Shown one piece after another: positions 15,405 through 19,373 of a DNA stretch of 64,000 bases; within the stretch, counting starts at the first letter, position 1, and every line of letters starts with the position of its first letter. The DNA lies in the sequence record ON871820. The stretch is one strand, 5' to 3'. Below the pieces are notes generated by a model that saw nothing but the letters and a program-made list of their open reading frames with translations, had not been told where the DNA came from and did not search any database. Origin of the DNA: Escherichia phage vB_Eco-B1.1. A program made the translations under genes and the position numbers.

Positions 15405-16295
15405 ATGTCAGTAGTAATTAATAATGTCAATGCAGTAATTAAATCTTTAGTTAATAAAAAAATGATGAATGAATGGACTGTATTTCGTCGTGGAGAGCCA
15501 GATAAATTTTTTCATAGATTTAACCCAACTTTGGATTTGAATGTTATTGATAAAGATGTTCATGCTGAAATTTTAGATAAATTTAAAGTTGATATTGGGT
15601 TTGGATTAGATAAACATTTACAGCGAACAAACGGGTCTGGAATGAGTTTATCTAATCGCATTATGAAAGCCCTTAATAAAATTGGAGCATTGTCTCGTAT
15701 TAACGCGAGTGAAATCCTTCGCAATTATAATAAAGGATACGACCTTTATGGTCGACTAATGCCAAAATTATCATTCGATCAAATGATTGCGGATTTGTGG
15801 GAAAATCAACGACGATTATTAGCATTAGGCGCTCGATTAGCTAAAGGTCTAGATAAACAAATGATTTTTAAGACCAATAATACAGAAGACCTTAAATGCT
15901 TTAAATTTAGTATTCGTGGAGATGATTATTACATCAGAGCTCGCTCTACTGATTATGTTAATATGGGGCATCATCTCTGTTTAGCTTTTGAAGTTTTAAA
16001 AGAAGCCGGAACATTAGAATATTCATCTGGTGCAAAATGTCCAATTGGTTCAAGTTGTATTTTAATTTATCGCCCGGATGAATCCAGTTCATCCAAATTA
16101 CCTACAAAACCTGTACCAGTTCGTAGTAACGAAAAACATTCTGAACAAATTGATTATTTTAATAAGCAGATTGAAGAGCTGAATATTTCTATTCAGCAAT
16201 ATGATGATGAAATTTTCAGACTATCTGGACTGAGTAGTAAAGCTAAATCTGAGCGTGAAAAGTTAATTAAAATTGTTGATTTACTTAAATCTTAA
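15405..16295 (+). CDS. coiled-coil-tailed protein, paralog A
   Basis: ~300 aa with C-terminal heptad-like segment. Confidence 0.55.
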   Translation: MSVVINNVNAVIKSLVNKKMMNEWTVFRRGEPDKFFHRFNPTLDLNVIDKDVHAEILDKFKVDIGFGLDKHLQRTNGSGMSLSNRIMKALNKIGALSRINASEILRNYNKGYDLYGRLMPKLSFDQMIADLWENQRRLLALGARLAKGLDKQMIFKTNNTEDLKCFKFSIRGDDYYIRARSTDYVNMGHHLCLAFEVLKEAGTLEYSSGAKCPIGSSCILIYRPDESSSSKLPTKPVPVRSNEKHSEQIDYFNKQIEELNISIQQYDDEIFRLSGLSSKAKSEREKLIKIVDLLKS

Positions 16296-16303
16296 GGAAC
16301 ACT

Positions 16304-17332
16304 ATGAAAACTCGTTCTCAAATTGAAGATATAGTTCGTAATGCCAGCTATACTCGTGATGCTATGACATTTTTGTGTGAAAATAATTTAGACCTTAATA
16401 AAGTTAATTGTTCCATTCACGCCTTTAAACATCTGAACAGCAGTGAATGGGTGCGTAATTTTAATGAAGCAGGGTATATTACACAAATGACTGCTCGTGA
16501 GCAACTCGTTGATTTCTGTAAAACTATTGATTATAAAAATCCTCTATTTGTTCGAGGCATTGGTCAGAGTAAGGTTGATTTATCAGCAGGATTTTTTAAT
16601 CCAAATCATTATCGTCTTGAATGGAGATTTATTGCTCTATTCCGTAAACAATTAAAGCAAATTTTGTCGACTGCTAGTCGATTAAAAGGCTCTGATATTA
16701 ACTTAAAGAACCTGAAATTTGATGGTTATACTCTTCAGATGGAAGTAAGACCATTAAAAGAAAATAATAGAACTGCACGAATTAGCTTTAAACCTAATAC
16801 AAAAAATTCTCTTTCAATTTGTGAATGCCTTAAATCACAGTTGACAGAAGCATTTAAGCATATGGATGTTGTTGCTGCTGTTCAGTCTAAGATTTCACAA
16901 CATTTCGAACGATTTAAATTAGACACAACAACATATGAACTTGATATGATCGTTTCATTTAAATACGATTTTTTGAGAAAGGACGAAGTCACGCAAGAGA
17001 AAAAGCGGGAAGTGCAAGATAACTTAAATTTAAATTTATCCAATTACTCATCAAACGATCCTAAATTTTGGATGTATAGTTCAGGTAATAATGATGCATG
17101 GAAATTCAATAAAGTGAATTTTCTTCCTGTTGAAAATCCGAGTCTTAAACCTGTTGAAAAATGGCATGCTGATGCGATTGAGAAGTCTATCAAGGCAGTA
17201 GATGATGAACTCGTTAAAGCAACTAATGAAGTGTTAGAAGCTGAAAAGATGTTAGAAAAAGCTCAAGAAAAAGTCAAAAATCTCACGAAGCAACGTTCTA
17301 AACTGAACAATGCACTAAATGCACTGAACTAG
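16304..17332 (+). CDS. coiled-coil-tailed protein, paralog B
   Basis: shares FRKQLKQILSTASRL-type motif with paralog C. Confidence 0.6.
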   Translation: MKTRSQIEDIVRNASYTRDAMTFLCENNLDLNKVNCSIHAFKHLNSSEWVRNFNEAGYITQMTAREQLVDFCKTIDYKNPLFVRGIGQSKVDLSAGFFNPNHYRLEWRFIALFRKQLKQILSTASRLKGSDINLKNLKFDGYTLQMEVRPLKENNRTARISFKPNTKNSLSICECLKSQLTEAFKHMDVVAAVQSKISQHFERFKLDTTTYELDMIVSFKYDFLRKDEVTQEKKREVQDNLNLNLSNYSSNDPKFWMYSSGNNDAWKFNKVNFLPVENPSLKPVEKWHADAIEKSIKAVDDELVKATNEVLEAEKMLEKAQEKVKNLTKQRSKLNNALNALN

Positions 17333-17340
17333 TTTACTTT

Positions 17341-17370
17341 ACCACAAGGATGTGGTATAATGTTCTTACT
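17341..17370 (+). promoter_or_regulatory. early promoter
   Basis: GTTTAC 17341-17346, TATAAT 17365-17370. Confidence 0.65.
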
Positions 17371-17389
17371 TTCTACTGAGGAGATTAAT

Positions 17390-18391
17390 ATGACTCGTAA
17401 CGAATATATCAAATCATTCAATAGTGTTATTGATGATAAAGTTAAACCTATGTCTAGTCAGAATAGCGTTATTTCCATTATCAATCAATGGCTCAATAAT
17501 ATTGATGTAAGCATTGTTTCTTCCAGCAAATTTATTCATGAAGTTCATAAAATTTCTAGTCGCGAAGATAAAGATGATATTAAGGAAACCTTTAAAGGTT
17601 CTCGTCTTCTTTCATATTTAGTTAATCAGGATATTCTTGGTAAATTTGGGAAAGAAATTAAACGAACTAAAGATGTAGTAGGATATAATTGGTTCGGTGA
17701 TGTTAATTCTTATCATCTTAATATTAAAGAAGACCCTGAGAATATTTTTACTCGTCGTTGGATTAGTAATTTCAGACTTTTCAAAAAGCAAATTCTAAAA
17801 TCAGCTTCTAAATTATGCTATGGTGATTATCGCCAAATTCATCCTTGGGCTTCTGATATGATTATCATAAAAGAATATGAACTTGATAAAAATAAAGCAG
17901 CTATTTTTGTGAATTATGGATTTTTTACACCAGAAGCTAATCAAAAGAACATTAATAAATTTTTCTCAATTGCTAGTGATATAACTCGTCAATTAGAGAC
18001 TGCACTACTTTGTATGGAAACAGTAGAAAATATTCATACTTATCCTTTTAAGAATATGTGCGGTTGGGAAGGATACAAAATTGTAGTTAGTCTTCGTGAA
18101 GTGAAATGTGCTTATTCACTAACTGATAAAGAAATTTATCAACAAAAATGCGAAGAAATTGTGAATACCCCTAAAGAAGAAACTACACTTGAGGAACTAA
18201 TGGATAATCTTGATGATTCACCTGAACAGGTAGAAATTCGTCCAGAAGTTATTGCACTAGAAAAAGCTTATAAAGAAGTTCTAGAAATTTCTAATAAAGC
18301 GCAGAAAGAATATGAGAAGGCTAAAAGGATTTGGGAAGAATCTGTTAATCGCCTGGATCGTCTTGAACAAGCTTTACAGTTAATTAAGTAA
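17390..18391 (+). CDS. coiled-coil-tailed protein, paralog C
   Basis: SD GAGGAG; C-terminal coiled coil. Confidence 0.6.
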   Translation: MTRNEYIKSFNSVIDDKVKPMSSQNSVISIINQWLNNIDVSIVSSSKFIHEVHKISSREDKDDIKETFKGSRLLSYLVNQDILGKFGKEIKRTKDVVGYNWFGDVNSYHLNIKEDPENIFTRRWISNFRLFKKQILKSASKLCYGDYRQIHPWASDMIIIKEYELDKNKAAIFVNYGFFTPEANQKNINKFFSIASDITRQLETALLCMETVENIHTYPFKNMCGWEGYKIVVSLREVKCAYSLTDKEIYQQKCEEIVNTPKEETTLEELMDNLDDSPEQVEIRPEVIALEKAYKEVLEISNKAQKEYEKAKRIWEESVNRLDRLEQALQLIK

Positions 18392-18443
18392 TTTAAAGCC
18401 AAGGATGGCTCGGAGTATAAATCATTAACCAAGTGAGAAGAAC

Positions 18444-19373
18444 ATGAAAACTCGTAAACATTATATTGATTATTTTGATAGTCTTATTACTAAACACCGT
18501 AATTATCAGATCGGGCACAGAACAGTAATCAATAATATTCTTCGTGATTTCCTTCAATATGTTGGCCAGGAAAATCATATTTGTAAAGATACTCAAAACG
18601 CTTATTCTCATTCGTTAGGCAATTTGCTTGAATGGTTTAAACGTTCTCGTATGTTATCTTCTACTGTAGCTCGCGATAACATTGAAAACTTTATGAAGCC
18701 GAGCTTCATTAAATCTGCGACATCTATAACCGATTTGGTTGAATTTACTATTGTTAACGATGTTAAAAAGACCCATTTGGCTGATTGGTTATCTACCATT
18801 CCTGAAACTAAATTTGCTGATAAATTCGCTTGTCAATTCAATGACCAAGTGAATATGCTTTTTAAGCATGCTCGTAAACTATTTACCGCGGGCGATGACC
18901 GTACAAATACAGTTCATGTTAAGGACTGGGTTATTGCTGATGAAGTAACACACAAGCCAGGTGGTTCATCAGTATTAATTAATATCCAGGTTCCTTATTA
19001 TTACTCACGTAATCTCGGCACCATGAACGCTAGAGAAATTAATAAGCACAACAAAACTATTCGTTCGTTGTCTTATAAACTCCGCATGATGTTAAAAATT
19101 ATGGACGTAGTAGAAATGTATGACGAAACCGAAGATAATGGTTCAATGTTATACAGTTCACGCATTCTAATTAAACTGAAGAACCCTAATACGTATAAGC
19201 CAGTTGTAAAAGAACCTAAAGTAGAAAAGGTTGATAACCTGAGCGAAGAACGTGAATATCTCAATGCTCGTTTGATTGAAGTTGAAGCCCAGATTGCCGA
19301 ACACACCAAATTGTTAAAAGCTCTTAATGCAAAAGCAAATGGTTTACGTAATGCTATTGAGGTATTGAAATGA
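18444..19373 (+). CDS. coiled-coil-tailed protein, paralog D
   Basis: C-terminal coiled coil. Confidence 0.55.
   Translation: MKTRKHYIDYFDSLITKHRNYQIGHRTVINNILRDFLQYVGQENHICKDTQNAYSHSLGNLLEWFKRSRMLSSTVARDNIENFMKPSFIKSATSITDLVEFTIVNDVKKTHLADWLSTIPETKFADKFACQFNDQVNMLFKHARKLFTAGDDRTNTVHVKDWVIADEVTHKPGGSSVLINIQVPYYYSRNLGTMNAREINKHNKTIRSLSYKLRMMLKIMDVVEMYDETEDNGSMLYSSRILIKLKNPNTYKPVVKEPKVEKVDNLSEEREYLNARLIEVEAQIAEHTKLLKALNAKANGLRNAIEVLK

Follow-up and report, generated by a model that had tools for sequence, protein, structure and literature searches.

The nrdC.6-nrdC.3 array of a T4-like Escherichia phage: a probable family of ancient tandem paralogues and candidate inhibitors of host immunity

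Introduction

The best-described relative of the locus analysed here is the phage T4 gene nrdC.5. The locus is a tandem array of four genes, designated A, B, C, and D, which lie consecutively and all on the + strand at positions 15405-19373 of a 64,000-nucleotide (nt) stretch of Escherichia phage vB_Eco-B1.1 (ON871820); this whole stretch is referred to as the window. An evolved T4 deletion mutant was unable to infect ECOR17 and regained infection when the host gene dsr1 was deleted, cloned dsr1 protected MG1655 against the deletion mutant, and plasmid-expressed T4 nrdC.5 restored plating of the mutant on Dsr1 cells (PMC9391042; Srikant, Guegler and Laub, eLife 2022). According to a 2026 preprint, the TPR sensor of Dsr1 recognises the phage major capsid protein (PMC12803255). 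A functional analogue is the phage protein DSAD1, which three reports describe as binding to the SIR2 defence protein DSR2 and inhibiting it (PMC10973363, PMC11087589, PMC11290490); DSAD1 has no enzymatic domain and disarms a defence-associated sirtuin.

Other genes of the same early accessory region have been assigned comparable roles. T6 Gp49.2 inhibits OLD (PMC13096335), and the HIDEN-SEQ preprint reports T4 nrdC.1 as a Septu inhibitor and bas37_0203 as a Druantia III inhibitor, and finds T4 nrdC.3 to nrdC.6, like the corresponding Bas37 genes, to be non-essential on K-12 (10.1101/2025.11.20.689424). The genes of the array and the function of one of them were therefore already known. What is added here is their grouping into one superfamily, a modest step, together with its single-copy ancestors, a common predicted fold, and a functional hypothesis for three orphan genes.

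Results

Orthology and paralogy of the array genes

The four open reading frames (ORFs), of 296, 342, 333, and 309 amino acids (aa), lie exactly where a preliminary description, made from the letters of the window, had placed them. Gene A (15405-16295, from an ATG) is the orthologue of T4 nrdC.6 and is 97.3% identical to T4 NrdC.6 over 259 aa; gene B (16304-17332) is the orthologue of nrdC.5 (89.5% identity) and stands, as in T4, between the nrdC.6 and nrdC.4 orthologues; gene C (17390-18391) is the orthologue of nrdC.4 (89.5% identity); and gene D (18444-19373) is the orthologue of nrdC.3, to which it is 60.6% identical, being a non-T4 allele. The T4 names were assigned from annotated T2 and T4 records and from tblastn searches of the window with all T4 proteins of the region. 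Over the 4.8 kilobases around the array, several hundred genomes of Tequatrovirus (T4-like phages of Escherichia, Shigella, and Yersinia) share 90-96% DNA identity with the window, which is thereby identified as that of a T4-like (Tequatrovirus) phage.

The nrdC.6 gene of the T4 reference NC_000866 (locus L002, 4103-4930) is annotated with 275 aa and departs from the window's gene A after residue 259, so that it is without the C-terminal helix. The HIDEN-SEQ T4 annotation gives nrdC.6 as an 891-nt gene, and a frameshift or a strain difference in the reference is likely to explain the short version.

Sequence comparisons joined the array genes to different degrees. C and D were related by direct BLASTP (E=1e-7, 25% identity over 226 aa) and by hhalign (2e-12). 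B and C were linked by profile comparison, with an E value of 0.005 when the alignments were shallow and an hhalign E value of 5e-5 over 226 collinear columns after divergent Dhakavirus-like B copies had been added. Direct BLASTP was not significant for A against B, C, or D or for B against D. Profile-profile comparison of A with the others gave E values of 0.06-0.15, which are likewise not significant; the alignments were still collinear and paired the same motifs. Mutual identity among A, C, and D was 12-25%, and DNA-level repeat searches among the four genes returned only short matches at chance level.

Two single-copy proteins of more distant phages bridged these gaps. Gp057 of the Klebsiella Marfavirus F48 (a P0232-like protein of 315 aa) matched the B, C, and D profiles with E values of 2e-9, 1e-7, and 1e-4, respectively, and gp085 of the Enterobacter Kanagawavirus IME523 (335 aa) matched the B profile with an E value of 2e-5 and the A profile with 3e-8, the latter match extending from the motif helix as far as the C-terminus. 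In control searches the target was shuffled 400 times within 25-residue windows with its composition kept, and every F48 and IME523 score exceeded all 400 controls; the bridging signal is therefore not compositional. Both genes are furthermore syntenic with the array, lying between an nrdC.11-like nucleotidyltransferase gene and nrdC.

From these comparisons, paralogy is certain for B, C, and D and very probable for A. We conclude that the four are ancient tandem paralogues of one gene of ~300-340 aa, which form an NrdC.3-NrdC.6 superfamily. The preliminary description had regarded the ORFs as diverged duplicates and had named similarity no greater than compositional bias as the outcome that would count against this; direct, profile, bridging, and structure-model comparisons all uphold the duplication, and both the C-D match and the bridging hits reach beyond composition.

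Predicted architecture and shared motifs

AlphaFold2 models were obtained for A (mean predicted local distance difference test score, pLDDT, 78) and C (mean pLDDT 83), and both showed the same order of elements: an N-terminal helical domain, a motif helix pair, a beta-beta-alpha-beta-beta sandwich, a low-confidence linker, and a long C-terminal helix. The C-terminal helix is a hairpin in the A model (residues 243-272 plus 278-295) and spans residues 285-332 in the C model. When these models were compared by Foldseek with predicted viral structures, the C model matched the model of phage JS10 NrdC.6, a member of the A family (E=3e-5), and an NrdC.3-sized Yersinia phage protein (E=1e-7). Eight distant targets of 300-346 aa were common to the A and C models; they came from T4-like phages of Enterobacter, Pectobacterium, Acinetobacter (Acj61, two adjacent genes), Klebsiella, Yersinia, and Serratia. 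With the models of A and C as a guide, all four proteins are predicted to have one architecture, in which a variable helical domain is followed by a conserved helix pair, a sandwich, a disordered linker, and a heptad-periodic helix.

The sandwich resembles the lambda gpU-like fold of phage tail terminator and tail completion proteins. This is a resemblance of fold only, within a common fold class and without membership, and the NrdC proteins differ from tail terminators in being early and non-structural, about 2-3 times longer, and equipped with extra helical domains.

A 14-sequence alignment of all families contained three collinear conserved blocks: F-K-x-S-R-x-L-S ... L..F; F/W..Q..L..A.(R/K)L..G, on the helix pair; and the C-terminal (K/R)L..A(I/L)..L(K/N). 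The conserved motifs thus occur in globular regions as well as in the coil. In this multi-family alignment, shared helix motif 1 (IMKALNKIGALSRINASEILRNY in A) corresponds to 15660-15728 in A, 16448-16516 in B, 17579-17647 in C, and 18624-18692 in D (all +). Shared helix motif 2 lies at 15798-15848 in A (residues 132-148, WENQRRLLALGARLAKG), 16640-16690 in B (residues 113-129, FRKQLKQILSTASRLKG), 17780-17824 in C (residues 131-145, FKKQILKSASKLCYG), and 18837-18893 in D (residues 132-150, FNDQVNMLFKHARKLFTAG), again on the + strand. The internal motif that had been noticed earlier in B and C is real, and it has counterparts in A and D.

The third block closes an amphipathic, heptad-periodic helical module, delimited by the heptad test, AlphaFold2, and alignment, at 16131-16292 in A, about 17168-17329 in B, 18242-18388 in C, and about 19239-19370 in D (+); all four modules finish in (K/R/G)L..(A/I)(I/L/V)..L(K/N). 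Over the last ~42-50 residues, the a/d hydrophobic periodicity was far above that of shuffles of the same segment in all four proteins: none of 2000 shuffles attained the observed value for A or B, and the fraction that did so was 0.005 for C and 0.01 for D. The heptad-rich C-terminal segments of the preliminary description are accordingly present in every member, as long helices in the two models, and they suggest that the proteins oligomerise through this helix.

Family assignments and domain searches

The four proteins fall into established families. Gene A belongs to phrog_2257 (E=8e-152), and all 105 of its homologues carry PF26899. Gene B matches PF23882 (DUF7235) with 394.6 bits against a cut-off of 30, residues 1-342 covering model positions 1-307 of 307; it is also a member of phrog_2351, and its homologues carry PF23882. 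Genes C and D are both members of phrog_1435 (E=5e-165 and 8e-117, respectively), and the homologues of C carry PF26897. A, C, and D had no match to the PF23882 model. B is the orthologue of T4 NrdC.5 by its sequence identity, its full-length Pfam match, and its genome position; A, C, and D share the architecture and ancestor of NrdC.5 and belong to other families (PF26899/phrog_2257 and PF26897/phrog_1435).

Pfam and NCBIfam searches found no enzyme domain or catalytic motif in A-D, in agreement with the preliminary description, and A, C, and D gave sub-threshold noise only. Searches by sequence returned no relatives of solved structure; profile matches to designed helical repeat proteins spanned one N-terminal helical stretch only and were treated as spurious. 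The products of nrdC.3-nrdC.6 are commonly labelled "thioredoxin" in GenBank records, and in one record "Mur ligase domain-containing protein"; neither label is supported by a domain match. No thioredoxin or glutaredoxin match was found in A-D with Pfam or NCBIfam, and the "thioredoxin" annotation is copied over from the gene name nrdC.x.

Copy number, distribution, and alleles

The number of array genes, for which comparison across related phages had been proposed, is one, three, or four depending on the genus: Tequatrovirus has A-B-C-D, Dhakavirus-like loci have A-B-C and no D, the Mosigvirus SSE1 has A-B-D and no C, and Marfavirus and Kanagawavirus have one copy. The duplications must be old, because each paralogue type is recognisable across genera. 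Among 50,697 phage records, tblastn detected 741 with A, 581 with B, 553 with C, and 653 with D. When 1.84 billion proteins were searched exhaustively with a C/D profile, only 10 cluster representatives were retrieved at E<=1e-3, including one bridging sequence (P0232), and by sequence the family is restricted to T4-like phages.

Within Tequatrovirus, nrdC.3 (D) occurs as two deeply diverged alleles, the type in the window and the T4 type (L002, 7137-8063), with ~60% identity and a synonymous divergence (dS) of about 1; the two differ mainly in the middle of the protein and agree over the first ~70 residues and in the C-terminal helix. With 75-78% identity to the Mosigvirus copies, the allele in the window is nearer to them than to the T4 allele, which suggests exchange between genera. 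Rearranged and broken copies were also found. In T2, A and C are split ORFs (L001, 4453-5286 and 6434-7373) and B is intact; C is split in one metagenomic relative (L009, 7971-9003); a natural contig (P0161) has B and D fused in frame (B::D), with C missing; and the A gene of Shigella phage Sf25 (P0001) contains an internal tandem duplication of ~82 residues.

Selection

Gene-wide ratios of nonsynonymous to synonymous divergence (dN/dS), computed pairwise against six Tequatrovirus relatives, were 0.05-0.14 for A, 0.21-0.32 for B, 0.10-0.23 for C, and 0.09-0.32 for D; those of the flanking genes nrdC.10, nrdC.8, nrdC, and 49 were 0-0.09. The array genes are under overall purifying selection, yet evolve faster than their flanks, with a several-fold higher dN/dS. 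Gene-wide positive selection was rejected, all array values being under 0.35, and the diversifying selection suggested at the outset is not shown by these ratios. The most variable parts were the N-terminal ~60 residues of both A and B and residues 181-280 of B, and the motif region was nearly invariant. In B, these segments (residues 1-60 and 181-280) may alter the specificity relative to that of T4 NrdC.5.

Transcription and neighbouring genes

A T4-type early promoter (aGTTTACt, 17 nt, TGgTATAAT) was predicted between B and C at 17332-17361 (+) by a consensus scan and inspection of the sequence, and a GAGGAG Shine-Dalgarno sequence follows it, ahead of the ATG at 17390. The 32-base-pair promoter stretch is 100% conserved as a separate match in another phage record, and the promoter is presumably active. 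An alternative, longer start of gene C, at ATG 17360, falls within the -10 element; because of this, and because GAGGAG precedes 17390 and all gene C homologues begin with MTRNEY, gene C is taken to encode 333 aa. The four genes are probably co-transcribed in two units, and the orientation of the window is the direction of early transcription in the T-even early region. No Rfam family was found in window positions 12000-22000.

The array lies in an accessory region, as the preliminary description had it, with nrdC.11 to nrdC.7 upstream and nrdC.2, nrdC.1, nrdC, 49.1, pin, and 49 downstream. The NrdC.8 orthologue (14406-14933, +) is 98.9% identical to that of T4, and the NrdC.1 orthologue (19673-19915, +) is 97.5% identical. 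The gene bas37_0203 was considered as an array member and rejected: in the annotation table of the HIDEN-SEQ preprint it is a 528-nt gene between nrdC.7-sized and nrdC.9-sized genes, which by order and size, not by sequence, makes it the orthologue of NrdC.8, and bas37_0198-0201 correspond to nrdC.3-nrdC.6. NrdC.1, NrdC.8 (Bas37_0203), and Gp49.2 share with the array proteins their early accessory region and are non-essential on laboratory hosts and devoid of recognisable domains; they differ in being small and unrelated in sequence to A-D. No homologues of T4 49.3 and 49.2 were found in the window, where the slot at 20177-20565 (+) holds two small ORFs (71 and 69 aa), as in T2.

Two other neighbours showed further features. 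T4 NrdC.2 aligns to 19372-19686 (+), from position 19372 on, with 85.7% identity, and the ORF list puts the start of nrdC.2 at ATG 19432, giving 84 aa with a zinc-ribbon-like CxxC...CxxC; its N-terminal part may be interrupted, or another start may be used. NrdC.10 (12973-13941, +) is very strongly conserved (dN/dS 0.01-0.09) and has weak matches to the P-loop nucleoside triphosphatase families AAA_14, AAA_22, and nSTAND3 (E about 1e-4), all under the Pfam cut-offs.

Discussion

Because B is orthologous to T4 NrdC.5, its most likely activity is to block Dsr1, a defence protein with SIR2 NADase function. The host-targeting role that had been proposed for such arrays thus gains support for B, through the ability of T4 nrdC.5 to overcome Dsr1 (PMC9391042), and for that member only; nothing points to the assembly-modulating role proposed along with it, the genes being early and dispensable on E. 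coli K-12. Since nrdC.5 and neighbouring early-region genes have reported roles against host defences, the array can be placed inside an anti-defence island.

We consider it somewhat more probable than otherwise that A-D are an early, non-enzymatic, and probably oligomeric family of host-immunity inhibitors, of which only B has a known target. The proteins would be made early in infection and, acting non-enzymatically, would bind host antiviral proteins and neutralise them stoichiometrically; the N-terminal and central parts, which diverge, would determine the target, and oligomerisation would be driven by the C-terminal helix, which is conserved. B would act on Dsr1, and A, C, and D would each act on a different host defence. 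An anti-defence role of these three, each with its own target, is suggested by paralogy and genomic context, and direct binding to the targets is presumed for all four.

Several points weigh against this interpretation. The experimental phenotype among the four belongs to nrdC.5 alone; it comes from plaque assays and may reflect binding or an indirect effect (PMC9391042). In the examined text of the HIDEN-SEQ preprint, nrdC.3, nrdC.4, and nrdC.6 are not highlighted as hits on the described clinical isolates (10.1101/2025.11.20.689424). A is tied to the others only through short motifs, a single bridging sequence, and predicted structure; the structure models cover A and C; and what points to oligomerisation is the heptad periodicity of the sequences alone. 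In addition, the split A and C of T2 and the split C of the metagenomic relative indicate that some copies are expendable or decaying.

These split genes also belong to the strongest alternative, a possibility of some substance that we nevertheless judge rather unlikely, namely, that only B is an anti-defence gene and that A, C, and D have other early roles in host takeover or regulation or are redundant copies drifting to loss. The natural in-frame B::D fusion without C, the absence of whole copies (C in Mosigvirus and D in Dhakavirus-like phages), and the lack of a reported phenotype for nrdC.3, nrdC.4, and nrdC.6 in the literature examined would all fit loss or other functions. Intact copies, however, are under purifying selection (dN/dS 0.05-0.32) in hundreds of genomes, with 550-740 records for each, every paralogue type is conserved across genera, and the surrounding genes have successively been assigned anti-defence roles.

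The adjacency of the genes, their probable co-transcription in two units, and the similar C-terminal motif (K/R)L..A(I/L)..L(K/N) that follows the heptad helix in all four would also suit subunits of one hetero-oligomeric complex, assembled through related C-terminal helices and directed at one common target. Such a complex is improbable, given that plasmid-borne nrdC.5 alone rescued the T4 mutant (which may itself have retained some of the paralogues), that related phages have from one to four copies, and that B is intact in T2 despite the broken A and C. That the ORFs are unrelated orphans whose resemblance reflects the composition of an AT-rich genome and of lysine/glutamate-rich helices, as the non-significant direct BLASTP comparisons (A against B, C, or D; B against D) and the lack of DNA-level repeats linking the genes might suggest, is scarcely credible in view of the C-D (1e-7) and B-C (5e-5) matches, the bridging sequences, real scores above all 400 local shuffles, conserved motifs in globular regions and not in the coil only, and congruent predicted structures with reciprocal Foldseek hits.

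A more speculative extension of the immunity-inhibitor interpretation, to which we give only a small chance, is that the family is a modular decoy scaffold, whose tail-terminator-like sandwich and variable N-terminal domain imitate the phage structural folds read by bacterial TPR-type sensors. Among such sensors are Dsr1/Avs7, for the major capsid protein, and Avs15, for the tail terminator, and each early paralogue would occupy a different sensor non-productively, ahead of the late proteins. If this were true, the array would be a collection of sensor blockers whose number rises and falls with the host immune repertoire.

With the genes and one function already published, the gain is incremental. 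T4 is the best-studied lytic phage, yet its nrdC.3, nrdC.4, and nrdC.6 are still "hypothetical"; because they have ancestry and architecture in common with the counter-defence gene nrdC.5 and lie among counter-defence neighbours, they are good candidates for similar roles. The copy numbers of one, three, or four, the two D alleles, the natural fusions, and the pseudogenes are a record of the fast turnover of such genes. Three orphan genes of hundreds of therapeutic-candidate phages thereby become specific candidates for defence-system panels, and the comparisons suggest which parts may matter: specificity may lie in the N-terminal and central regions, which vary, and a common mechanism in the conserved motif helices and the C-terminal helix.

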